Source: Minisyncoccota bacterium
Lineage (GTDB): Bacteria > Patescibacteriota > Minisyncoccia > Minisyncoccales > RBG-13-42-11
DNA length: 32,000 bases
Direction of reading: 5' to 3'
Assembly: GCA_041653495.1 (NCBI GenBank)
Contig: JBAZFF010000002.1
Coordinates: 18,281 to 50,280, forward strand
Shown here piece after piece: positions 13,380 to 30,561 of the stretch (position 1 is the stretch's first letter; each line of letters opens with the position of its first letter). A program made the position numbers and the translations under genes. A model generated the notes under the pieces. The model worked only from the letters and a program-made list of their open reading frames with translations, was not told the origin of the DNA and did no database searches.

Positions 13380-13832
13380 ATGGCCATTAAAAACACAATA
13401 AGATCGTTTAGAGCAGGAGAGTTCAGAATAAATAAAAACCTCTATTTGGTTTCCGCCGCATTAACCATATTGACTATGGTGATGCTGGCCACTGAATTCT
13501 TCAGCAGGTGTGCCTTTCCTTCAACCAGGATACCCCTTTTTTATTTGGGATTGTTAATTATCTATTCTTTGCACAAGGAACTGATCAGGTGGCTGGGAGA
13601 AGAGAAGGTAGAAAGGCAGGGAGAACTTTTCGTATATGCCTGGATTATGTTCACGACCTTTCTCTATGTCGTCAGCTTTGCCAGCAAGCAGTATTTTACC
13701 GATCAGGCGCAGGGAGGATGCGACTCTGCCATCGTGTCTTCTTGCACTATAACCTTGGAAATTTTGGTCATTTACCTGATAACCAGGGCCTCAAAATACG
13801 TGAAAGTGGCCAGAATATCAAGGAAAAAATAA
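13380..13832 (+). CDS. Small polytopic membrane protein, function unknown
   Basis: 150 aa with about four hydrophobic helices. It sits between tRNA-Pro (10 nt upstream) and tRNA-Ala (0 nt downstream). Confidence 0.6.
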   Translation: MAIKNTIRSFRAGEFRINKNLYLVSAALTILTMVMLATEFFSRCAFPSTRIPLFYLGLLIIYSLHKELIRWLGEEKVERQGELFVYAWIMFTTFLYVVSFASKQYFTDQAQGGCDSAIVSSCTITLEILVIYLITRASKYVKVARISRKK

Positions 13833-13903
13833 GGGCCTGTGGTTCAACGGCACAACACTACATTCGCATTGTAGTAATGGCGGTTCGATTCCGCCCAGGT
13901 CCA
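13833..13903 (+). tRNA. tRNA-Ala (anticodon CGC), no encoded CCA
   Basis: GGGCCTG TG GTTC..AAC A CTACA TTCGCAT TGTAG TAAT GGCGG TTCGATT CCGCC CAGGTCC A. The G3:U70 alanine identity pair is present (G13835/T13900). Confidence 0.85.
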
Positions 13904-13913
13904 CTTACTACTA

Positions 13914-13942
13914 TTGACTTTTCTCCGTTTTTATTATATAGT
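13914..13942 (+). promoter_or_regulatory. Sigma-70-type promoter for the receiver-domain gene
   Basis: TTGACT (13914..13919), 17-nt spacer, TATAGT (13937..13942). A leader follows with a strong SD, AAGGAGGT (13968..13975), 5 nt before the GTG at 13981. Confidence 0.5.
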
Positions 13943-13980
13943 TTAGTATTTCAGTACCCATTAGAAAAAGGAGGTAAATC

Positions 13981-14346
13981 GTGAAGATACTAGTTATTGA
14001 CGACGACGAATATTCCCAGAAATTTTTTATTGACTTTATCGGGATTCTGGGAGGCGAAATACTGAACGCCTATACCTCGGAAGAAGCAGAGAGAATGCTT
14101 TTTTTGAACCCAGATGTCGCAGCCATTGTAATGGACGGCCATTTGGGGGAGAAGGAACAAAACACGGCTTCCCTTATCACTAGGATAAGAGAAAGCTACA
14201 AAGGCCCAATTTGGGGGAATACAGGGGATCGGGGCGTGATAGCTTTGTTAAAAGAGGCTGGGTGTGACGAAGTTTTCTTCAAAACTCCTGGTAAAGGGGA
14301 AAAGGGAATTCGCGATCAATTAGATAGTTTCTTTACTCGAAAATAG
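13981..14346 (+). CDS. Stand-alone CheY-like response-regulator receiver domain
   Basis: 121 aa, GTG start. MKILVIDDDE acidic pocket, AAIVMDGHL phospho-acceptor Asp, FFKTP Lys. No output domain and no kinase in the window. Confidence 0.75.
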   Translation: MKILVIDDDEYSQKFFIDFIGILGGEILNAYTSEEAERMLFLNPDVAAIVMDGHLGEKEQNTASLITRIRESYKGPIWGNTGDRGVIALLKEAGCDEVFFKTPGKGEKGIRDQLDSFFTRK

Positions 14347-15005: not shown

Positions 15006-16124
15006 ATGAAAAATTTGGTTTTTGAAAATATCTTAAAAAATGCAGGGAATGATGCAAGCGAGTTTGTGAAAACAATTGGTAAAAATAGTTTGCGTCCGCC
15101 GCTATATAATGCAGAGAACTATGTTGGAAATATGATAAGAGATAAGTATTTTGCTGCACTAGTAATTGTGCGCCATTATGTAAAATTGACGAGTGATACA
15201 TACTGGTCAGAAATTGGTGCATTTAATGTAGATCTTTTCATGTTGACACCAAGTGCTTCATCTCCAATGGGTCCAGGATCTGATTCTGAAGTGATAAGTA
15301 TCCAATTTGGTAAATACCACACTAACCTCACTGACTCGTCGCAATTTGGTTTTGAGCCGCTCATGTTTCATCTCGATAAAGCATACTGTTATTTACCATC
15401 AATGCGAGGTGAGAATCCTGATGCACGACACTTGAACCAATTTTTTCACTGCGAAGCAGAAATTGTTGGAACACTCAGTGAATTATTACCGTATGTCGAG
15501 GGTTATGTGCGGGCACTTGCTAGGACATTTATGGCACTCGCACCAATCATAGAACTCATGAGCATTGATTTCTCAAGAACAGAACAGGCACTGCAAAGTA
15601 TTATCAATGCTAAGAGTTTCAATAAAAAGACTTTCGACGAAGTATATCCGTGGCTGCAAGAAAATTCTTCATTCTATTCGGTAAGTGACTTTGGAAGAAA
15701 CATTACCAATAATGGCGAGGTTGCACTTGTCCGAGCGATGGGAGATGGTTTGCCGATGTGGCTCTGTAACTACGACCGAGACACTGTTGCCTTTTATCAA
15801 AAACCAAATCCTGGAAACGCAAACTCTGCTATAAATGCAGACTTGTTATTTGCACCAATTGTCGAAGGTGGTTTTGGCGGAGAAATTGTGGGCTCTGGAC
15901 AACGACAGGATAACTCTGAAGAAATTACCGAATCTCTCAAAAGACAAAAAGTCGATGGAGGGCCTTATGAGTGGTACAGCAATCTTCGTAAACAACCGAG
16001 CTATAAAACAACATCTGGTTTCGGATTGGGGATAGAAAGATTTATCGCTTGGGCACTTGGATATTCTGATATTAAAGACGTCATTCATTATCCACGGCTT
16101 AAAAATATTAAGACACTACCATAA
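15006..16124 (+). CDS. Class IIb aminoacyl-tRNA-synthetase catalytic-core paralog (AsnRS/AspRS/AsnA-like), lacking an anticodon-binding domain
   Basis: 372 aa. PSMRGENPDARHLNQFFHCEAEIVG matches class IIb motif 2 (FRAE...RHL.EF..lE.E). GGEIVGSGQRQD matches GGEi.GGsqRe. SGFGLGIERFIAWALGYSDIKDVIHYPR matches motif 3 (GFGLG.ER......IRDVI.FPR). Only ~45 aa precede the core, so there is no OB fold. Confidence 0.75.
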   Translation: MKNLVFENILKNAGNDASEFVKTIGKNSLRPPLYNAENYVGNMIRDKYFAALVIVRHYVKLTSDTYWSEIGAFNVDLFMLTPSASSPMGPGSDSEVISIQFGKYHTNLTDSSQFGFEPLMFHLDKAYCYLPSMRGENPDARHLNQFFHCEAEIVGTLSELLPYVEGYVRALARTFMALAPIIELMSIDFSRTEQALQSIINAKSFNKKTFDEVYPWLQENSSFYSVSDFGRNITNNGEVALVRAMGDGLPMWLCNYDRDTVAFYQKPNPGNANSAINADLLFAPIVEGGFGGEIVGSGQRQDNSEEITESLKRQKVDGGPYEWYSNLRKQPSYKTTSGFGLGIERFIAWALGYSDIKDVIHYPRLKNIKTLP

Positions 16125-18944: not shown

Positions 18945-20099
18945 TTATGGCTGGCTGCAGAACAATCTCTGCAACAGTTCCCCGCCAATCACAGACGCGA
19001 CCATAACCTCTTTTCTGTTGTTAAGTAGCTTTGCTGCCCAGTCCATTGCGCCACCATCCGAAAGCTGAATCATGTCACCTTTTTGGTTGCTGGCGAATAT
19101 GTGGAAGCAGAGATGCAGATAATAGCCAAGCCCCGCTTTTCTATTGAAATCAAAGCAGAACCGAACTTGTGGATACATCTCGCGAAGAGGAGCCATGAGA
19201 CGGTGTTCCGTGTTGGTATAATATTCCTTATGATTGGCGATACCAATCCCTTCAAATATGGACGAACATAAATCATCAGCGCATTCAACTTCTTTCGGAA
19301 AAGGAACACGATACTTCTCAAAGAGATCAAATTCATCATTGAGTGAGTTCCGTATTATTTCTTCACGAGGAAGTTTTTGTGCCGCTATTAGCTGTTCGAG
19401 GAATCGAATATCTGAGACTTTGACAGTGATATTGCGTGATTTATAGCCTTCTTTATGTAAGGCAGATATCACATCCAGCAACATTTTTATGTGCATTCGC
19501 ATTGTTGCAGTCGCGAATCTCTCGTCCGATGAGGTTTGTAGTCCACCTGAACATAGAGCGAATATATAGAAATGTTGCATGTAGCCTTTATCCTTATCGA
19601 ATGGCTGGAGTCGCAACACACGCCCCGCAGTGCTCAGATGTACCGCGCTACAGTCCCCCTTAGAAGTTTTTTGTTTTCTTCGAAGCGAGCATTCCAGCGC
19701 CAATTGATTGGTGAAAGCACCGACAACCTCCGAATCATTTATAGTAGAGAGAACATTGTTTTGGCTAACACTACTTAGCACAGAGTTGAGACCAAGTGGT
19801 GCTATGGGAGAAGTCTGTACTGATTCGAATACAGGCCGCACTGTTTCGTGGAAAATCAAAGCATTCTGAAGGAGTTTGTCCTGAGCAATTGGACCGATTC
19901 CGAGAAACTCTTGCCTTCTCTCGTATTCCCGCAGTAATTCGGTAGGTTTTCTGGCCTTCGCTCGATTTTTGAATGCATGGATTAGGATAGGTTTCAGACG
20001 ACGCATCGGTGTCGTTGACAGAATCTCAAGAAGGTTGGGCACACCAAGCTCCTTGGAGATACTTTGAAGCATTTTTTCTTCCGAACTCTTAGGATCCAT
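18945..20099 (-). CDS. Class IIa aaRS-core paralog resembling HisRS/HisZ, no anticodon-binding domain; function unknown
   Basis: The track start (20138) is a TTG. The ATG at 20099..20097 is preceded by a consensus SD, AAGGAGGT, with 4-nt spacing, so I call 384 aa. AGRVLRLQPFDKDKGYMQHFYIFALCSGG resembles HisRS motif 2 (fRyErPq.GR.ReF.Q.g.E.fG). FDFNRKAGLGYYLHLCFHIF...LSDGGAMDWAAKLL...VMVASVIGGELLQRL resembles RGLDYYTG.vFE...GGRYD.L...PAvGFa.G.ERL. This is a motif-pattern match by eye only. Confidence 0.5.
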   Translation of the reverse strand: MDPKSSEEKMLQSISKELGVPNLLEILSTTPMRRLKPILIHAFKNRAKARKPTELLREYERRQEFLGIGPIAQDKLLQNALIFHETVRPVFESVQTSPIAPLGLNSVLSSVSQNNVLSTINDSEVVGAFTNQLALECSLRRKQKTSKGDCSAVHLSTAGRVLRLQPFDKDKGYMQHFYIFALCSGGLQTSSDERFATATMRMHIKMLLDVISALHKEGYKSRNITVKVSDIRFLEQLIAAQKLPREEIIRNSLNDEFDLFEKYRVPFPKEVECADDLCSSIFEGIGIANHKEYYTNTEHRLMAPLREMYPQVRFCFDFNRKAGLGYYLHLCFHIFASNQKGDMIQLSDGGAMDWAAKLLNNRKEVMVASVIGGELLQRLFCSQP

Positions 20100-20355
20100 C
20101 CTTACCTCCTTTTTTAGTATTAAAGAACTGGGCCTCAAAGACCACCTTGAAGATAATATGATTATACTATAATCACGCTTTATTGTATAGAGTAGGCTAA
20201 TTTTGTCCGGGGGAGCTCTGCGGGAGAGAGAAAGACTCGTACTTTATTAGCGACACCATCATACTGGAGAGTCTTATGAAATTTCGCAGGGAACTCTAAT
20301 TGCAGGAACCTATTCAAAGGGCAGGGGGTTAGGAAAATCGTCTTTTATTCCCGCC

Positions 20356-21176: not shown

Positions 21177-23753
21177 ATGATTATTGCCTTAAGTTGGGTT
21201 CTTGTAAGTTATGCCTTAGGATCCATACCTTTCGGCTATTTAATTTCCAGGGCTTTCGGAAAGGATATTCTTGAAGTTGGGTGGAAAAAGACATCCGGGT
21301 CTAATGTCTATAAGAATGTTGGAAAGGCTCAGGGAGTGCTTACTGGCCTCTTGGACATAGGGAAGGGATATTTGGCAGTATGGCTGGCCAAGCAGCTTGG
21401 ACTGTCTTTGGAATTCCAGATTTTGGCCGGGACAGCAGCCGTAGTGGGCCATAACTGGTCCCTCTTTTTGAAATTTTCAGGAGGAAGGGGAATCGGGACA
21501 TTCGCCGGAGCCCTTCTGGTCTTTTCTCCTATCTTATTCGGGTTGGCTGTCCTCATCATGCTTCTGTTTGCGTTCGTCTGGAGTTCTGCCATAGCCACTC
21601 TATTGCTTTTCGCATCCCTGATATTCTTTTTCTTCAACCCTCCGGCATTTCTGACGGTTTCCGAAGCTCAGTCGGCGGGATTTCTGGCGTTTTGTTGCCT
21701 TCCTTTCATCTTACTGAAAAGATTAAGTCCGATAAGCGCATTATTCGGGAATCCGAGAAGAGGGTTTTTGATTTTCTCCAGGTTGGTTTTTGACGACGAC
21801 AGAATAGTGGGCTTCAAATCCGACGAGGCAGAAAAGTTAATCAAGCCGATAACTATTACTTCTAAAATAGGCTGGGCGGTGGCCAAGTACGGGGCGAAGA
21901 TTACCAAGAGCGGGATCATAGCTGCGAAAAAAGGAGTGGAAAAGTACGTCTTGGGGGAGGACGAAATAGTTGTCACAGAACTCAGGGTTGAAGACTTCAA
22001 GAAAATGATGATAACTGCGGCAAAAAAAATAGTGATCCATCAGGAAGAGATAAACAAGATAAACGTCTTCCCTGTCGCAGACAAGGACACGGGATACAAT
22101 ATGGCAGCCACCCTTTTGGGAGTGGAAGGAGCGGTATCTAGAAGGAATTATTCCAATTTCAGGGAATTGACAGAAGATATGAAGGATGCGGCTATGATAA
22201 ACGCCAGGGGGAATGCGGGGATGATAACGACCGGCTATTTCGTGGAGGTTTTAGACAGAGTGAAACATTTAGAGACTATAGACGCTTTCCACTTGGCCCT
22301 GGCCATGCAGAGAGGGATCAAAGCCGCCAGGTCTTCAATCGCGGTTCCCGTTGATGGGACTATTTTAGACACAATCAGGGCGGCCGGAGAGAAAGCCTTT
22401 GAAATGGCAAAGGAGGGAAAAGAAAAGAACATAGTAAAAGTTTTGGAAGGAGCTTTAGCGGAGGCGAAGCACGCCTTGGAAACGACTCCTGAAAGGCTCC
22501 CGGTCTTGAAAGAGAATAACGTAGTAGATGCTGGCGGCATGGGATACGTAAAGATTCTGGAGGCCTGGGTAGACAGCCTAAAAGGAGTGGAATTGGACGC
22601 TCCGAATGGAAATAGTTCTTTTATCCAGCCGCAGGCGGAAGAAAAACTGGCATTCAGGTACGAAATAGTCGCAATGTTCAAGAAACCGGAAGATTTTGAC
22701 CCCGAAAAATTCAGGAAAGAGATTTCTTCATTGGGAGACAGTTTTGAAATGCTGGATGTTAATGAAAAAGTCAAATTTCACATTCATTGCAACGATACGA
22801 AATTAGTCTTGGATAAGATAAAGGGCTGTCCGGATTTAGACTGCAGGACGGAGGATATGCAGAAAGAAGAAAAGAAAGCGGCCAAGAAGCCTCTGGGCCT
22901 GGTCGTCGGCGAAACCGCAAATCTTCCAAAGCTATATATGAAAGAAAGAGAAATAGAAGAGGTGCCGTTCTTCTCCAGGTTTCCCAGCGGTGAAATAATA
23001 CACAAGAGGGAAGAGATCTTCCCGAGAATGAGGGAGGCTTTAGCAGAGGGAAAGCCCCTGCCCACGACTTCCGCCCCGTCATTCAAGGATTTTTTGGAAG
23101 CTTATGGAAAATCTTTGGAAAGATTTGAAAACATTTTAGTGATAACTCCTTCCTCAAAACTTTCCGGCACTTACAGTTCCGCCCGAATAGCCAGGTCCAC
23201 TTATAAGAAACCGCAAAAGACACATATATATGTGTTTGACTCCTTTGCCGTAGAAGTTGGAGAGGGGCTGATAGCAATGAAAGCCCAGGAGCTGATAGAC
23301 CGGGGAAAGAGCATGGAGGAGGTTGTAAAAGAGCTGGAGTCCTTCGCCCCGAAGATCTCTTTGGTGGCTTTGCTGGAAGACGTAAGATATATAGCGAAAG
23401 GAGGAAGGTTCCATCTGCCCGGTCTGGCTCTGTCTTTGGTCCTTTCCCTCCAGAAATTAGGATTGAGGATTTTAATAAAATTGAGAGACGGGGAAATAAA
23501 ACCAGCGGGAGCTTTCTTTGGCAAAGATATGGCAGAAACGATCTTTAGGGCTGTTGTGGGTGCCGTCGGGAAAAAGAAAGTGAAAGTGGCTATCGGCCAT
23601 GCCGATAATTTGAAGGCGGCGGAGAAGTTGAAAGAGCTGACTGAGAAAAACTTGAACGCAGAAGTTGTGTTCATCTCCGGAGTGTCGGCTGCGATCGGGA
23701 ACCACTCCGGTCCCGGGACTTTGATATTCTCCTTTTACGAAGTTGACAAGTAG
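21177..23753 (+). CDS. plsY: Triple fusion: PlsY acyl-phosphate:glycerol-3-phosphate acyltransferase + FakA-type Dak2 (DhaL-like) kinase module + DegV (FakB-type) fatty-acid-binding domain
   Basis: 858 aa in one uninterrupted frame. aa 1-200: YALGSIPFGYLISR, LDIGKGYLAV and VVGHNWSLFLKFSGGRGIGT (PlsY pattern, ~6-7 TM). aa ~270-470: INVFPVADKDTGYNMAATL, ARGNAGMITTGYF, PVDGTILDT and NVVDAGGMGYV (Dak2/YloV pattern). aa ~480-560: FRYEIVAMF...LGDSFEMLDVNEKVKFHIHCND (FakA middle domain pattern). aa ~590-858: LGLVVGETANLP, TTSAPS, ILVITPSSKLSGTYSSARIA, YIAKGGRF and IGNHSGPGTLIFSF (DegV pattern). Confidence 0.85.
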   Translation: MIIALSWVLVSYALGSIPFGYLISRAFGKDILEVGWKKTSGSNVYKNVGKAQGVLTGLLDIGKGYLAVWLAKQLGLSLEFQILAGTAAVVGHNWSLFLKFSGGRGIGTFAGALLVFSPILFGLAVLIMLLFAFVWSSAIATLLLFASLIFFFFNPPAFLTVSEAQSAGFLAFCCLPFILLKRLSPISALFGNPRRGFLIFSRLVFDDDRIVGFKSDEAEKLIKPITITSKIGWAVAKYGAKITKSGIIAAKKGVEKYVLGEDEIVVTELRVEDFKKMMITAAKKIVIHQEEINKINVFPVADKDTGYNMAATLLGVEGAVSRRNYSNFRELTEDMKDAAMINARGNAGMITTGYFVEVLDRVKHLETIDAFHLALAMQRGIKAARSSIAVPVDGTILDTIRAAGEKAFEMAKEGKEKNIVKVLEGALAEAKHALETTPERLPVLKENNVVDAGGMGYVKILEAWVDSLKGVELDAPNGNSSFIQPQAEEKLAFRYEIVAMFKKPEDFDPEKFRKEISSLGDSFEMLDVNEKVKFHIHCNDTKLVLDKIKGCPDLDCRTEDMQKEEKKAAKKPLGLVVGETANLPKLYMKEREIEEVPFFSRFPSGEIIHKREEIFPRMREALAEGKPLPTTSAPSFKDFLEAYGKSLERFENILVITPSSKLSGTYSSARIARSTYKKPQKTHIYVFDSFAVEVGEGLIAMKAQELIDRGKSMEEVVKELESFAPKISLVALLEDVRYIAKGGRFHLPGLALSLVLSLQKLGLRILIKLRDGEIKPAGAFFGKDMAETIFRAVVGAVGKKKVKVAIGHADNLKAAEKLKELTEKNLNAEVVFISGVSAAIGNHSGPGTLIFSFYEVDK

Positions 23754-23777
23754 GCATTCTTTGTTAGAATAAAGGCA

Positions 23778-23802
23778 GTCCGCGTTGTTGCGGGCATTTT
23801 TT
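23778..23802 (+). terminator. Intrinsic terminator
   Basis: GTCCGC (23778..23783) / GCGGGC (23790..23795), followed by ATTTTTT. Confidence 0.6.
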
Positions 23803-23819
23803 AAAAATAAGAAAAATAT

Positions 23820-25073
23820 ATGATGGATATTAAAAATTTTCATTCAGCAATTTCTCAGATAGCCGAAGAAAAAGGGATTTCAGCCGAGAAGGTGCTGGAA
23901 ACAATAGAGATGGCTATAGCCGCAGCTTACAAGAAAGACTACGGGAAGAAGGGGCAGATAATAAAGGCCAAACTGGATTCACAGACCGGTTCTGTTAAGT
24001 TTTGGCAGGTAAAGCAGGTGGTGACGGAAGATATGCTTTATACTGAAGAGGAGCTGGCTCAGATGCAGGAAGTCAAAGAGGAGATAAGCGAGGAAAATAA
24101 GAAAATACGTTTCAATCCCGAAAAGCACATATTATTGGCGGACGCTAAAAAGTTGAAAAAAGACATAAAAGCGGGAGAGGAGCTGGAAACGGAGTTGGAA
24201 ACCAAGGAAGACTACGGGAGAATCGCCGCCCAGACCGCAAAACAGGTTATCTTGCAAAGGATCAGGGAAGCAGAGAAGGAAAGCGTCTTTTCTGAATATA
24301 AAGCCAAAGAAGGCGAATTGATTTCAGGAGTAGTCCAGAGAATAGAAGGAAGAAATGTCTTTTTAGATCTCGGGAAGACTTTGGGCTTCTTGCCCAGAGA
24401 AGAACAGGTTCCCGGAGAATTCTACAGGCCGGGACAGAGGCTGAAAGTTTTTGTTTTAAAAGTGGAAGACTCTTCAAGAGGATCGGTAGTTTTCTTATCC
24501 AGGGCGTATCCCAAGATAATTTCAAAGCTTTTTGAACTGGAAGTTCCCGAGATTCCTTCAAACCAGGTTGAAATAAAATCAATCGCCAGGGAGGCGGGAT
24601 CCAGGTCAAAAGTATCCGTGCAGTCAAACCAGGAAGGAATAGATCCTATCGGAGCCATGGTCGGGCAAAAAGGGACAAGGGTTATGGCTGTGATAAACGA
24701 ACTCGGAGGAGAGAAAATAGACATTATTGAATACTCCGAAGAGCCTGACAAATATATAGCCAATGCATTGTCTCCTGCCAAAGTGCTGGATGTAAAAGTT
24801 CTGCCCAAGAATAAAGCCGAAGTGTCCGTTCCTGAAGACCAGCTTTCTTTGGCTATCGGGAAGAACGGACAGAACGTAAGGCTAGCGGCAAAACTCACCG
24901 GTTGGAAAATAGACGTAAAGAGTCCTAACGGAGAAGGAATATCCAGCGAAGAGCTGTTGGAGGGAGAAGAGGCGAAAGAAGAGCCCGCAAAAGAAGCTCC
25001 CAAAGAGACAGAAGAAAAACCGAAAAAAGTTAAAAAAGTAAAAGAAAAGGTCAAAGAGAAAGATAAAAATTAA
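23820..25073 (+). CDS. nusA: Transcription termination/antitermination factor NusA
   Basis: 417 aa. The N-terminal domain ([29 protein letters not shown]), S1 ([21 protein letters not shown]) and two KH domains ([37 protein letters not shown]) are present, followed by a K/E-rich tail. Confidence 0.95.
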
Positions 25074-25075
25074 TT

Positions 25076-27058
25076 ATGGAATTAATTCCAATCATAGTTT
25101 CAATATTTTCTTTGCTCTTCGCTTTTTTCCTTATAAGGGAAATAAACAAATCAAAGTCTGGCGAAGGGAAAATGGCAGAAGTCTCCCAGGCCATAAAAGA
25201 GGGAGCAGTCGCGTTCTTGAAAAGGCAGTATAAGACAGTGGCCATAGCCGCCGTAGTCATATTCGTGCTTCTTTTGATTTTTCTGGGGTTTAATACCGCC
25301 CTGGGATTTCTGATAGGAGCCGTAGCTTCCGGCTTTTCGGGATATCTGGGCATGACGGTTTCGACCAGGGCAAACGTCAAAGTGGCGGAGGCCGCAAAGA
25401 ACGGTTTGAAATCCGCCTTGAGTCTTGCCTTCAAAGGAGGGTCTGTCACAGGATTCTTGGTTGCAGGCCTGGGGCTGCTTTCCGTTTCTTCGTTTTATTT
25501 GATAACAGGGGACTTAAAAGCCTTGATCGCTTTGGGATTTGGAGGGAGCTTGATTTCCGTTTTTGCCAGGCTGGGAGGCGGAATTTATACTAAAGCCGCA
25601 GATGTCGGAGCGGACTTGGTGGGCAAGGTTGAAAAAGGGATACCCGAAGACGATCCGAGAAACCCGGCGGTAATTGCCGACCAGGTCGGGGATAACGTCG
25701 GAGACTGCGCCGGAATGGCTGCAGATTTGTTTGAAACCTACGTAGTTACGATAATCGCAGCCATGGTCTTGGGGTCTTTGATATTCCCCAATATGGCACA
25801 GGCCATATTGCTTCCTTTGATTTTAGGATCCGTAGCCATACTGGCTTCTATTATTTCAACGTTCTTTGTAAGGCTTCCCAAGTCAAACTCAATCATGGCA
25901 GCCCTGTATAAGGGAATCATGGTAGCCGGAGCCTTGTCCGCTTTGGGATTCTTCCCGATACTTTCTGATTTTACAAAGAGCATGGGAATTACCCAGTGGA
26001 GCCTGTATATTCCGGCCATAGTCGGATTATTGCTGGCCGCAGGAATGTTCGTCGTCACGGAATATTTTACGTCAAAAAGTTATTCTCCGGTGAAAGCCAT
26101 TGCCAAGGCTTCCGAATCCGGTCACGGAACCAATATTATCGCAGGATTGGCCGTGGCAATGAAATCTACTATAGTTCCGGTTATTTTGATTTCAATCGGA
26201 GTATTGGTAAGCTTCCATCTCGGGGGAATGTACGGGTTGGCGATATCCGCCGTTGCCATGCTTTCTTTGACCGGGTTGATTATTGCCATGGACTCTTACG
26301 GCCCCATCACCGATAACGCCGCAGGGATTGCCGAAATGTCAGGATTGGATCCTGAAGTGAGAAAGACCACGGATGCATTGGATTCGGTCGGGAACACGAC
26401 AAAGGCTGTGACCAAAGGATACGCCATAGCTTCGGCGGGGCTTGCAGCTTTAGTATTGTTCGCCGCTTACACCCAGGAGCTCTCGGAAATAGGAAGGCAG
26501 GTAAACTTCTTTTTGGAAGATCCCAAGGTTTTGGTAGGATTACTCTCGGGCGGAGTAGTGGCTTATTACTTTGCGTCTCTGTCTATGGAAGCGGTGGGAA
26601 AGGCGGCAGGAAAAGTAGTAGAAGAAGTCAGAAGGCAGTTTAAGGAGATCCCGGGAATTATGGAAGGGAAAGCCAGGCCGGATTATTCCAGCTGCGTAGA
26701 CATCGTCACCAAGGCAGCCTTAAAACAGATGTTGCTGCCCGCTTTGCTCCCTGTGGTATTTCCGATCTTGATTTTCGTTCTTTTGGGGGCGGAAGGTTTG
26801 GGAGGATTGCTGATAGGTTCTCTGGTGATAGGGATATTCTTAGCTATCCAGATGACTTCAGGCGGCGGAGCTTGGGATAACGCCAAGAAATACATAGAAG
26901 ACGGGAACTACGGCGGCAAGGGATCATTCGCCCACCAGGCAGCGGTGACCGGAGATACTGTAGGAGATCCCTACAAGGATACTGCGGGGCCCGCCATAAA
27001 CCCCATGATCAAAATATTGAATATCGTTGCCTTGCTGATAGTCGGATTATTGGCTTAA
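25076..27058 (+). CDS. hppA: Membrane-integral H+-translocating pyrophosphatase, K+-independent-type signature
   Basis: 660 aa, polytopic. [37 protein letters not shown] and [20 protein letters not shown]. The [10 protein letters not shown] motif has Lys at the A/K position that distinguishes K+-independent enzymes. Confidence 0.96.
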
Positions 27059-28432: not shown

Positions 28433-29362
28433 ATGAAACACACAATCTCTCTAATAATAGGAGTAGCGGTCATGAGTCTTTTTGTGGGGTACTGGGCCAT
28501 TGCTTTTACTTCCCCCACAGCTACAGCTCCAGGCGACAATGTGGCTACCCCTCTAAATACAAGTATTAATGCCCAGTCGAAGGAAGGAGCTTTGGTGCTG
28601 GGAACCAATTCGTCGGTTTCCATAGCCTTAGTAGTGTTGAACGGAAAGGTGGGAATCGGGACAACGAATCCGAGTGAGAGTCTCGAAGTGGCTGGCAGCG
28701 CAAAATTCAGAGATTCTTTTATACTAAATCCAGTTAATGCTCCTTCTTCTCCAGCGGAAGGGGAAACTTATTTTAACCAGAACGACAAATTCATTTATTA
28801 TTATAATGGTTCGTCTTGGGTCAGGATAGGAACTGCAACCGGAGATTCTTGCACCACGGGCAGTGAGTGCGGAAGCGGTTATTGTGTAGACGGCTACTGT
28901 TGTAATTCTGCCTGTAGTAGCACTTGTTATGCCTGTAACCTTGCAGGGTCCATAGGCACTTGCACTGCAGTGACAAATTATGCGGAGGATTCGGGTTGTA
29001 CTTCCACCTGCCAGGGTTGTTCTAATGGCTCTTGTACATACATTCCCAACGGATATTCAGACACTTATGGTACTGGATTGTGTAATAATACTCATTATCG
29101 TTGTGATGGATCCGGTAGTTGTACAGCTCCTATTGCTACTTCAGATATAGGTTGCGAAACTTACCTTGGCGATACTGGTTATGAGGTTTGCTCAGCTCTT
29201 GGTTTCGACGGTTGTAATGTTGGTGCTATTTGTATAAGTGGTAATTGTGCTATGCCGACATATAATTGTGCCTGTAGTTATGTTTGTGACGGCGGCTGTA
29301 GTTATCCGGGTGCTTCAAATTACTATGGTACTATCAGATGTTATAACTGGGTGTACGACTAG
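28433..29362 (+). CDS. Membrane-anchored/secreted Cys-rich fibre-like surface protein
   Basis: 309 aa. N-terminal anchor IIGVAVMSLFVGYWAIAF, then GKVGIGTTNPSESLEVAGSAKF and a C-terminal half with about 30 Cys. It shares a 41-aa Cys module with the next gene. Confidence 0.75.
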   Translation: MKHTISLIIGVAVMSLFVGYWAIAFTSPTATAPGDNVATPLNTSINAQSKEGALVLGTNSSVSIALVVLNGKVGIGTTNPSESLEVAGSAKFRDSFILNPVNAPSSPAEGETYFNQNDKFIYYYNGSSWVRIGTATGDSCTTGSECGSGYCVDGYCCNSACSSTCYACNLAGSIGTCTAVTNYAEDSGCTSTCQGCSNGSCTYIPNGYSDTYGTGLCNNTHYRCDGSGSCTAPIATSDIGCETYLGDTGYEVCSALGFDGCNVGAICISGNCAMPTYNCACSYVCDGGCSYPGASNYYGTIRCYNWVYD

Positions 29363-29385: not shown

Positions 29386-30561
29386 ATGGATAAAAAAGAA
29401 AAATTAAAATCACTTTTCGGCTTAATAAAAAATAAGCAGATTTTATTTTTAGTTGTAATTGTGGTTTTAATAATAGGCGCCGCATTCATTTCTAAAGCCA
29501 CTTCTTCTATCACCGATACATTTGATGATTCCTCGAAAATTGCGGGGACAACCAACGTTACTGTCAGCGGAGGGCAGATAAAGTTATCTTTGTTTGGAAA
29601 CGGACTCGCCTGCACTTCCGCCAGCCAGTGCGTGTCAGGTTATTGCGCGGATGGATACTGTTGTAACTCTGCTTGCGGTAGCACTTGCCAAGCTTGTGAT
29701 TTAACGGGAACAGTAGGGGCATGCACCACCGTTGTTGCGGGACAAGATCCGGACAGCGAATGTTCAGCTTATACTTGCACTAATTATATATACGGCTGGA
29801 ACGGGAACAGTTGCGCTAAATATTCCGGAGCGACTTCTTACAACGGGACCTGTTCGGGCTCTACTAGCTGCTCAACTGTAGCCAGTTCCTGCACTGGCGT
29901 AGGCTCTGCTTCTGCTTCTTGCGGGAGCGCGGGGTGCAATAAGGCTTGCGTAGCCAGTTCATACTATACAGGATATGATACCGTAGCTGAAGTTTGCTAC
30001 ACTGCAGACCAGCATGGTTGCAGTACGTCATATTATTGTAATTCTTCAGGAACTTGCGTGTGTAATGGTACTGGAACGGCCTGTTCCTCCGGCATACAAT
30101 GCTGTTCAGGATATTGTTATATAGATGCAGACGGGGACGGATATGCTGGTTCTTCGGGAACTGCGACCTGCAGGCCGGCGGCTTCGGCGGGAACTGACTG
30201 CTATGACGCAAATGCCAATGCAAGGCCCGGGCAGACCTCTTCCTTCACGGCTAACAGAGGAGATGGAAGCTTTGATTATAATTGTAACTCTGTTATTATT
30301 AAAGATTCAAATTGTTCAGGTACTATAAATTGTACGGGATCAGGCTCTAATCCTTGTTGCGGCGGGTATACATCCTGTAGCGCGACATCTTACACTGCTA
30401 ATTGCGGACAAGCTTGGACGAGTGGTACTTGTGTAAATACGGGTTGTGCTGGTTATTATCAATGCGTTGTGGCGAATGCCGTTTCTGGGTGCGGTTGTTT
30501 CCCAATCGGTTCAGTTAATTATACTTGTTCTACGGTCGCGAAAACTTGCGGCTGCAATTAG
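29386..30561 (+). CDS. Membrane-anchored/secreted Cys-rich surface protein (paralogous module to the previous gene)
   Basis: 391 aa. TM ILFLVVIVVLIIGAAFI, then a region very rich in Cys, Gly, Ser and Thr, including CTSASQCVSGYCADGYCCNSACGSTCQACDLTGTVGACTTV. Confidence 0.75.
   Translation: MDKKEKLKSLFGLIKNKQILFLVVIVVLIIGAAFISKATSSITDTFDDSSKIAGTTNVTVSGGQIKLSLFGNGLACTSASQCVSGYCADGYCCNSACGSTCQACDLTGTVGACTTVVAGQDPDSECSAYTCTNYIYGWNGNSCAKYSGATSYNGTCSGSTSCSTVASSCTGVGSASASCGSAGCNKACVASSYYTGYDTVAEVCYTADQHGCSTSYYCNSSGTCVCNGTGTACSSGIQCCSGYCYIDADGDGYAGSSGTATCRPAASAGTDCYDANANARPGQTSSFTANRGDGSFDYNCNSVIIKDSNCSGTINCTGSGSNPCCGGYTSCSATSYTANCGQAWTSGTCVNTGCAGYYQCVVANAVSGCGCFPIGSVNYTCSTVAKTCGCN

Follow-up and report, generated by a model that had tools for sequence, protein, structure and literature searches.

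We analysed a 32,000-nucleotide stretch of genomic DNA from a Minisyncoccota bacterium (contig JBAZFF010000002.1), referred to here as the window, and found that a single gene on its forward strand encodes an 858-amino-acid protein in which a PlsY-like membrane domain is fused to a fatty acid kinase domain, the middle domain of FakA and a fatty acid-binding DegV/FakB domain. Our data suggest that this protein would activate free fatty acids as acyl-phosphate within one chain and pass them to an acyl acceptor at the membrane. The acyl-phosphate site of the membrane domain is kept and the residues that bind glycerol-3-phosphate (G3P) in canonical PlsY are replaced.

One reading frame encodes four domains

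The open reading frame (ORF; 21177..23753, stop codon included) starts with ATG, has zero internal stops and forms one open frame. Its translation matches four Pfam families, each above its gathering score and far beyond chance: G3P_acyltransf (PF02660; residues 10-180, E=2.3e-31, 109.6 bits against a gathering score of 24.1), Dak2 (residues 299-465, E=1.5e-28), FakA-like_M (residues 493-553, E=1.3e-09, 38.2 against 24.9 bits) and DegV (PF02645; residues 576-854, E=5.4e-46, 157.6 against 27 bits, profile positions 5-278 of 280). The original prediction, made from the DNA letters, had read the gene as a single-polypeptide fusion of PlsY, FakA (Dak2) and DegV; the profile searches uphold the Dak2 and DegV assignments and the fusion itself. 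All thirteen motifs that it quoted lie at exact positions: GSIPFGYLISR (residues 15-25), TSGSNVYKN (39-47) and GHNWSLFLKFSGGRGIGT (91-108) in the PlsY part; FPVADKDTGYNMAATL (298-313), ARGNAGMIT (343-351), PVDGTILDT (391-399) and VVDAGGMGY (449-457) in the Dak2 domain; LGDSFEMLDV (519-528) and KVKFHIHCND (531-540) in the FakA middle domain; and TTSAPS (630-635), SSKLSGTYSSARIA (659-672), YIAKGGRF (738-745) and GNHSGPG (841-847) in DegV.

The chain begins with a seven-helix PlsY-family acyltransferase module, termed type E (residues 1-185; 21177..21731), delimited by Pfam, alignment with the PlsY structure 5xj5, conservation and a domain model. It is followed by a conserved cytoplasmic juxtamembrane tail (residues 186-221; 21732..21839) with L198, N201, R202, F205 and D206 in the pattern NRLxFDxD ... 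LRIKR, and by a basic linker (residues 222-262; 21840..21962) that is predicted to be disordered from a predicted local distance difference test (pLDDT) score below 50, and that forms the fusion junction. The soluble half consists of FakA_N, a Dak2/DhaL-like ATP-Mg kinase domain (residues 266-473; 21972..22595; Pfam, residues and Foldseek), the FakA middle (L/M) dimerisation and metal-site domain (residues 491-560; 22647..22856; Pfam and residues) and, at the position of the FakA C-terminal domain (FakA_C), a DegV/FakB fatty acid-binding domain (residues 572-858; 22890..23750; Pfam, TIGR00762, fold and residues). A second junction, between the middle domain and DegV, falls at residues 563-568 (about 22863-22880), so that junctions first estimated at about 21780 and 22930 were close to those observed.

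In the full-length AlphaFold model (mean pLDDT 84.5) every domain is folded confidently, and the linkers at residues 222-262, 475-490 and 563-568 are disordered. A picture of domains on flexible tethers has been published for FakA too and matches this model. The length of the basic linker differs among homologs, and it carries a patch at residues 230-239 (21864-21893), K230-x-G232-W233...A236-K237-x-G239, each residue of which occurs in 85-95% of fused proteins. This patch may be a membrane-surface or docking element.

The fusion recurs across Candidate Phyla Radiation genomes

A homolog search returned 1615 matches, and 118 of the best 120 protein clusters (44-94% identity; drawn from NCBI, JGI, ENA and Logan) have the four-domain architecture. 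An exact look-up of the protein retrieved no record, and the closest match listed is 94% identical (JGI 3300037067). Many of these 120 clusters are named Patescibacteria, Pacebacteria or Parcubacteria and are automatically annotated as 'glycerol-3-phosphate acyltransferase'; homologs with the names Patescibacteria, Paceibacterota and Nealsonbacteria bear out the CPR (Candidate Phyla Radiation) affiliation that had been suggested. In GTDB genomes and JGI metagenomes our scans found 136 loci (numbered with L below), viewed with flanks of up to +/-10 kb, and at least 494 relatives in metagenomes. Once duplicates were removed, 41 of the genes were fused, 56 encoded FakA(N,L)-DegV with no PlsY, and type E stood alone in 40 cases.

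Relatives therefore exist in both split and fused forms, which bears on whether the fusion could be an artefact of assembly, frameshift or gene calling that joined adjacent plsY-like and fakA-degV genes. Such neighbours do occur: at L016, L096 and L097 a type E gene is followed by a separate FakA(N,L)-DegV gene, with stops in all frames between them, and at L124 the two stand in reverse order. However, the window shows a single open frame, the linker bears its own conserved motif, gene order around the fusion is conserved, and the architecture recurs in the clusters above and in 41 non-redundant loci from independent assemblies. Because of this independent recurrence we rejected the artefact reading, which we consider to have next to no chance of being correct.

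The soluble half keeps kinase and fatty acid-binding residues

We found that the kinase domain superimposes on Staphylococcus aureus FakA_N (8vit) in Foldseek with a template modeling (TM) score of 0.95 and a root-mean-square deviation of 1.4 Å, and that Streptococcus suis FakA aligns with the fusion over 629 columns. In S. aureus FakA_N, ADP and two Mg are bound by N32, D38, D40, T41, N82 and D185. The equivalent residues of the fusion, N296, D302, D304, T305, N346 and D451, are invariant in the 119 homologs over which all residue counts were made (119/119).

The middle domain of FakA holds a metal/Cys site (Cys240/His282/His284 in S. aureus; a zinc site of C244/H289/H291/H226 in S. suis). 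S. aureus FakA requires the Cys of this site, and in S. suis it is one of the zinc ligands. The HxH pair, H535 and H537 (22779-22787), is invariant in the 119 homologs, and the canonical Cys position is occupied by E496 (22662-22664; Glu in 102, Asp in 11 and Cys in 6 of 119). Judging from these columns, Glu or Asp for Cys is possibly a carboxylate-for-thiolate ligand swap. Cys538, beside the HxH pair, was considered as a substitute for Cys240 and rejected, its column being Thr in 110 of 119 homologs. That Cys gives way to Glu or Asp with both His kept bears on a published dispute over whether this cluster is catalytic or structural.

The NCBIfam model for YloV (TIGR03599) scores 233 bits and does not reach its cutoff of 396; since it is matched only over the first 303 of its 530 positions, FakA's own C-terminal domain is missing. 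The FakA model NF038248 is likewise below cutoff (148 against 975 bits), and Pfam gives no match to the FakA_C family anywhere in the 858 residues. In its place, as had been predicted, stands a bona fide DegV domain that matches the full-length DegV profile, passes TIGR00762 (171.9 against 99.7 bits) and resembles fatty acid-loaded FakB/DegV structures with Foldseek TM scores of 0.82-0.86. Prior studies of S. suis FakB2 identified T61, S93 and H264, together with R170 at the entrance, as the residues that hold the fatty acid carboxylate. Their counterparts, by coordinate offsets of the match to 7w7h_E and motif identity, are T631 (107/119), S663 (112/119), H843 (102/119, with Tyr in 15) and R744 (118/119). 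The canonical FakA C-terminal domain is a degenerate DegV-like fold that docks FakB, pairs with the partner chain's FakA_N and has no carboxylate-fixing Arg. Since the DegV domain of the fusion keeps this Arg, a substrate-binding protein has become part of the kinase, covalently tethered in the chain and not a free, dissociable carrier.

Of 46 fused loci, 12 have a separate free DegV gene directly upstream of the fusion, and the window has none. A free DegV gene lies beside the fused gene at L002, L004, L007, L009, L013, L018, L060, L062, L063, L066, L068, L071 and L095. Its presence is puzzling, as a free FakB would find no FakA_C on the fusion to dock to.

The membrane half has a PlsY fold and a variant motif 1

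Modelled by itself, the N-terminal domain has seven transmembrane helices (pLDDT 91, predicted TM score (pTM) 0.89), and its PDB matches at E<=0.001 are the PlsY structures 5xj5-5xj8 only (TM 0.75-0.79). Helix 4 is short (residues 106-116, 11 residues), as in Aquifex aeolicus PlsY (aaPlsY), and HMMER aligns residues 4-154 with 5xj5 without gaps (E=5e-16). PlsY has seven transmembrane helices with loops 1 and 3 in the cytoplasm (PMC5700162). Because of this topology the C-terminus is cytoplasmic, and the structure model agrees that the soluble domains are on the cytoplasmic side, as originally proposed.

The acyl-phosphate site is kept: His92 occurs in 115 of 119 homologs, G102, G103 and G105 of the loop are invariant, Thr41 of aaPlsY is Ser42 in 118 of 119, and Asn42 of motif 1 is the invariant Asn43. 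The T41S mutant of aaPlsY keeps half of its activity. Approximately 40 positions of the domain are invariant over 55-103 sequences at approximately 50% overall identity, and they include His92, GGRG, Ser42-Asn43, Asp60 and Lys63-Gly64, the lining of the PlsY active-site funnel.

Motif 1 is a variant, GWKKTSGSNVYKNVG, at residues 35-49. The original prediction had noted its divergence and aligned TSGSN with GSGN; the divergence is real and larger than noted, and the register was wrong. The flanking anchors GK..G..LD..KG fix the ungapped HMMER alignment, so that GW-K-K corresponds to G-S-G-N and 'SGSN' to 'GATN'. A canonical CPR PlsY aligns end-to-end with aaPlsY and has HRENxxR in common with it. 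The N-terminal domain thus has a PlsY fold and a PlsY acyl-phosphate site, as far as alignment and model go, and its G3P-binding residues are replaced (see below).

Type E is a distinct paralog within CPR lipid gene clusters

Type E is marked by the motif GW[RK]K[TN]SGSN and lies within a wider subfamily marked by GGRG, KRL and the NRLxFDxD tail. An exhaustive search of 1.84 billion representatives with the PlsY-like domain alone found 11,388 PlsY-family proteins, only 20 of them at E<=1e-30, which indicates that type E is a compact clade. In a rough neighbour-joining tree of PlsY paralogs (no support values), type E forms one clade with fused and solo members interleaved; the tree does not show the number or direction of fusion or fission events. 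Solo type E proteins stop about 45 residues past KRLSP, making the tail at residues 186-221 their natural C-terminus. Fused proteins keep this entire tail and continue into the variable basic linker, which indicates an end-to-end fusion of a complete type E gene with a FakA(N,L)-DegV gene that was complete as well.

CPR neighbourhoods hold up to three PlsY-family paralogs, of canonical, B, C, D and E types. Type B has GSKSxTATN, type C has GTGNVGAMN, GGKA and PIFIKQWP, and the canonical and B types are the only ones to pass the PlsY-equivalog cutoff. Type B is followed by type E at L019 (422-8483), L026, L037, L042 and L051, and type C by type E at L030, L031, L036, L038 and L040. Two solo proteins, P0126 (271 residues) and P0129 (352 residues), have long low-complexity C-terminal tails rich in Lys, Pro and Thr and no kinase domains. 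The sole genome match outside CPR (L047:8-6969; an uncultured Dehalococcoidales) has a solo type E with a conventional split FakA (554 residues) and DegV on the other strand, which suggests shared ancestry or transfer between Chloroflexi and CPR.

CPR genomes have a lipid cluster in common (L103, L115, L135, L052-54, L020 and L024). Its first half reads [canonical PlsY] - DegV - CDP-alcohol phosphatidyltransferase - CarS-like cytidylyltransferase - FakA(N,L)-DegV - [PlsY type C], and its second half [GGR-like reductase - UbiA prenyltransferase - polyprenyl synthase - PcrB/GGGPS - PlsY type E]. At L052 the cluster sits between cca and nusA, the slot of the fused gene in the window, and at L058 and L067 the genes for the CarS-like protein and the CDP-alcohol transferase come immediately before the fused gene. 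When loci with flanks of 5 kb or more on either side are counted, 12 of 17 unfused Fak loci have a PlsY-family gene no further than 5 kb away, against 0 of 11 fused loci with a second one (Fisher p=0.00025). The fused type E domain therefore appears to fill the PlsY slot, which suggests that it is the partner of Fak in fusion-bearing genomes.

A full archaeal-type ether-lipid set (genes for polyprenyl synthase, the PcrB/GGGPS family, UbiA, GGR-like reductase, a CarS-like member of the CDP-archaeol synthase family and CDP-alcohol transferase) lies among the CPR Fak and PlsY genes, at L052:2037-13516 and also at L103, L115, L135, L134, L020, L024, L053 and L054. Prior literature mentions in passing one Parcubacteria genome with GGGPS and DGGGPS, and we found no other in the literature searched.

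A proposed mechanism and the question of the acyl acceptor

We propose that the gene product would be a membrane-anchored, self-contained enzyme for fatty acid activation and transfer. This proposal builds on the domain identities, folds, topology, conservation of the fusion, genomic context and conserved residues of the kinase, fatty acid and acyl-phosphate sites described above. The C-terminal DegV/FakB domain would take a free fatty acid from the membrane and expose its carboxylate. FakA_N, probably that of the partner chain in a dimer held by the middle domain, would then phosphorylate it with ATP-Mg to give acyl-phosphate; a FakB-docking domain would be dispensable because the binding domain is covalently attached, and so would have been replaced. 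By way of the basic linker, a flexible tether, the acyl-phosphate would reach the PlsY-fold domain at the N-terminus of the same protein. There, at the cytoplasmic face, this domain would move the acyl group onto an acceptor of the glycerol-phosphate type. Prior work showed that FakB-bound acyl-phosphate is accepted by PlsY in vitro (PMC9136124). The product would feed the CarS-like cytidylyltransferase and CDP-alcohol transferase that relatives encode beside the gene. The likeliest single reaction would convert glycerol phosphate, of either stereochemistry, to lysophosphatidate through non-canonical binding. We infer that the protein probably dimerises, channels its intermediate in cis and is catalytically competent, and that its acceptor may be of the type proposed.

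The original prediction had described a complete module from fatty acid to lysophosphatidate. Conversion of fatty acid to acyl-phosphate in cis is well supported by the conserved residues and models, and we consider it very probable. Lysophosphatidate as the end product is plausible and not established, since the domain falls below the PlsY equivalog cutoff and the G3P residues are replaced; given this non-canonical acceptor pocket, the chances that the whole chain runs to lysophosphatidate are about evenly balanced.

Several observations weigh against that full chain. On the PlsY equivalog model TIGR00023 the fusion scores 98.1 bits over profile positions 3-157 of 196, below the cutoff of 137.2; solo type E scores 95.5, whereas canonical CPR PlsY (166.2) and type B (143.1) both pass. 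Of the residues that clamp the G3P phosphate in aaPlsY, Ser35 is replaced by Trp36 (invariant), Arg45 by Lys46 (100 Lys, 16 Arg) and Lys104 by Arg104 (invariant), and the oxyanion residue Asn37 by Lys38 (invariant). The motif 3 residues His177 and Asn180, which bind G3P, Asn180 as part of the phosphate clamp, have no counterpart: residues 155-200 contain zero conserved His or Asn in the fusion family, and an invariant KRLSP (K181-P185) stands at the place of motif 3. Ser142, which binds the 2-hydroxyl together with His177, is probably replaced by Thr141. Single mutations of aaPlsY (S35C/T, R45K, N37D, N180A/Q/H/D and substitutions of His177) strongly lower activity, and K104R reduces it to 25%. 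In the soluble half, the middle domain is without the Cys that S. aureus FakA requires, and the full-length model has a pTM of 0.45 and so does not predict inter-domain geometry. In relatives, solo type E shares a cluster with TIGR00023-passing PlsY genes at L019, L026, L037, L042 and L051, which indicates a distinct paralog that is not simply PlsY and argues that it does something else in those genomes. Of 16 solo type E genes with sufficient flanks, 8 have a further PlsY-family gene no more than 5 kb away, which speaks against simple PlsY equivalence, and the gene directly upstream of solo type E is PcrB/GGGPS in 8 of 41 cases, DegV in 4 of 41 and a polyprenyl synthase in 1 of 41.

These observations raise the possibility, which we regard as tentative, that the type E domain is a paralog that has specialised in a membrane lipid, instead of G3P, as its acceptor, the kinase half being unchanged. 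The candidate acceptors would be lysophosphatidate or a scavenged lysophospholipid, re-acylated independently of acyl carrier protein (ACP) in a 'PlsC-like' or Aas-like manner, or else the PcrB/GGGPS product, polyprenyl-glyceryl phosphate, which would give a mixed ether/ester lipid. Every G3P side-chain contact is replaced and the acyl-phosphate site kept; the residues that stand in for these contacts are larger, more hydrophobic or positively charged (Trp36, Lys38 and hydrophobic residues around 176-179). The company that solo type E keeps fits such a role as well, including the PcrB genes upstream of it and the run polyprenyl synthase-PcrB-DegV-type E at L046. CPR cells are, moreover, reported to be rich in lysolipids and without ACP-dependent enzymes, which would leave PlsC without a donor. 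On the other hand, the PlsY fold is compact, its lysophosphatidate product shares a groove with the acyl-phosphate chain, and type E has no insertion that could form a groove for a second lipid, as its ungapped alignment and TM scores with PlsY show. The PcrB clusters also hold a UbiA/DGGGPS-like gene able to add the second chain, so that adjacency may reflect lipid-gene clustering alone; fused loci show neither PcrB nor a second PlsY nearby; and no such activity is known in the PlsY family. If a lipid acceptor were used, which on balance we doubt, type E would be the founding member of a class of acyl-phosphate-dependent acyltransferases with a lipid acceptor, and not a G3P acyltransferase.

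The loss of residues essential in canonical PlsY and the failed equivalog cutoff could also mean that the PlsY-like domain is not an enzyme and serves as a membrane anchor, or as a port for exchange of acyl-phosphate or fatty acid, that would hold the single-chain kinase at the membrane, with other enzymes using the acyl-phosphate. According to the literature, FakB ordinarily needs membrane contact for fatty acid exchange. However, the approximately 40 invariant positions around the active-site funnel are more constraint than an anchor requires and make such a role improbable, and solo type E genes are maintained alone. Transfer of the acyl group to a glycerol-phosphate-type acceptor is the reading with the most support.

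Relation to known systems

The same three families act in the same chemical order in the Firmicute FakA/FakB-PlsY route of S. aureus and S. suis (PMC9136124, PMC10848957). There too, FakB/DegV binds the fatty acid, FakA_N, which is of Dak2 type, uses ATP and two Mg to phosphorylate it, and a PlsY-fold enzyme receives the acyl-phosphate; the functional residues of FakA_N and FakB and the HxH pair of the middle domain are kept in the fusion. Unlike the Firmicute system, which uses three separate proteins, the fusion is one chain, and the degenerate docking domain at the FakA C-terminus is exchanged for a functional-looking DegV with the carboxylate Arg. Furthermore, the Cys metal ligand is Glu or Asp, the acyltransferase is a divergent paralog without the G3P clamp, and PlsX/ACP exchange has no evidence within the 32-kb window.

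Escherichia coli Aas is a bifunctional acyl-ACP synthetase and 2-acyl-glycerophosphoethanolamine acyltransferase. Like the fusion, it is one membrane protein that couples fatty acid activation with acyl transfer, from free fatty acid to a glycerolipid backbone. Its folds and chemistry are unrelated: Aas works with an adenylate-forming enzyme, ACP and a PlsC-type acyltransferase, in contrast to the Dak2-type kinase, acyl-phosphate and PlsY fold of the fusion.

Single-chain dihydroxyacetone kinases (PMC9136124, PMC10848957) also combine an EDD-fold domain that binds the substrate (DhaK) and a Dak2-type nucleotide domain (DhaL) in one polypeptide, with phosphoryl transfer between the two across the dimer. 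They differ in that dihydroxyacetone is bound covalently, whereas fatty acid would lie in the DegV tunnel, and in that the domain order is reversed; the fusion has an extra middle domain and a membrane enzyme.

PlsY-DegV fusions were described in Bellilinea caldifistulae and Thermanaerothrix daxensis by Li et al. 2017 (PMC5700162) and read as channelling from FakB to PlsY. These proteins of thermophilic Chloroflexi, compared here by their description, resemble our fusion in joining a fatty acid-binding DegV to the C-terminus of PlsY and differ in having two domains, with kinase domains unmentioned. They were not recovered by the type E and FakA peptide patterns of our genome scan. Dak2-DegV fusions have been noted generically in earlier literature. 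Within the literature covered, which did not extend to subscription-only papers, we found no description of the four-domain fusion, the type E clade or the CPR lipid cluster, nor of DegV replacing FakA_C as the CPR norm. The parts thus belong to known families and the chemistry to the Firmicute FakA/FakB-PlsY route, and the fused four-domain form appears to be undescribed.

Other features of the window

The neighbours of the fused gene are housekeeping genes (ksgA, pnp, cca, nusA, H+-pyrophosphatase and clpP), and the 32-kb window contains no other lipid gene and no paralog of the fusion. The order pnp-NYN-rpsO ... cca ... fusion-nusA-H+-pyrophosphatase-clpP is kept in relatives at 54-94% identity. 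Downstream of the fusion, the order fusion - nusA - membrane H+-pyrophosphatase - (trigger factor) - clpP is found in the window (23820-27058) and at L057, L058 and L059, down to approximately 54% identity. By consensus match only, a candidate terminator (a hairpin of 7 pairs, 5 of them G-C, with a T-run; 23778..23805, forward strand) lies 25 nucleotides past the stop codon, and a promoter-like site (11/12 matches, extended -10 TG; 23743..23770, forward strand) overlaps the end of the ORF, 5' of nusA.

Several sizeable ORFs of the window have no Pfam match at E<=0.001. One of them, of 397 amino acids, lies just upstream of the fusion on the opposite strand (18945-20138); others are on the forward strand (13380-14346, 28433-29362 and 29386-30561). 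For a 372-amino-acid protein (15006-16124, forward strand), the match to class II tRNA synthetases (D/K/N type) is confined to their catalytic C-terminal part (profile positions 66-307 of 308). Since a normal synthetase is longer, this protein may be a paralog that serves a different role.

Significance

To our knowledge, the ultrasmall CPR bacteria (Patescibacteria) are without fatty acid synthesis, and how they make their membranes is an acknowledged gap. Probst et al. 2020 found that CPR have PlsY and PlsC and are without PlsX, and raised the question of the acyl-phosphate source, and recent reviews still describe CPR lipid acquisition as unexplained. The fusion, together with Dak2-FakA_M-DegV as the standard CPR FakA in a conserved lipid cluster, provides a testable answer for the activation step. 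Our data suggest a way in which scavenged fatty acids may enter the membranes of CPR bacteria.

For the dispute over the C-terminal and middle domains of FakA, a kinase of this kind, single-chain by nature, is informative as well: a C-terminal domain that is a true fatty acid binder and a 'catalytic' Cys that is Glu are both relevant to it. The variant PlsY clade points to a possible new acceptor specificity in a family with one known reaction. If the acceptor were a lipid, the protein would be an ACP-independent 'fatty-acid kinase plus lysolipid acyltransferase', with which CPR bacteria would turn lysolipids and fatty acids of host origin back into two-chain lipids or mixed ether/ester lipids. 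The lipid cluster of CPR genomes, with its genes for Fak, several PlsY paralogs, CarS-like, CDP-alcohol transferase, PcrB, UbiA, GGR and polyprenyl synthase proteins, would then represent an unrecognised membrane-assembly route that straddles the divide between bacterial and archaeal lipids.

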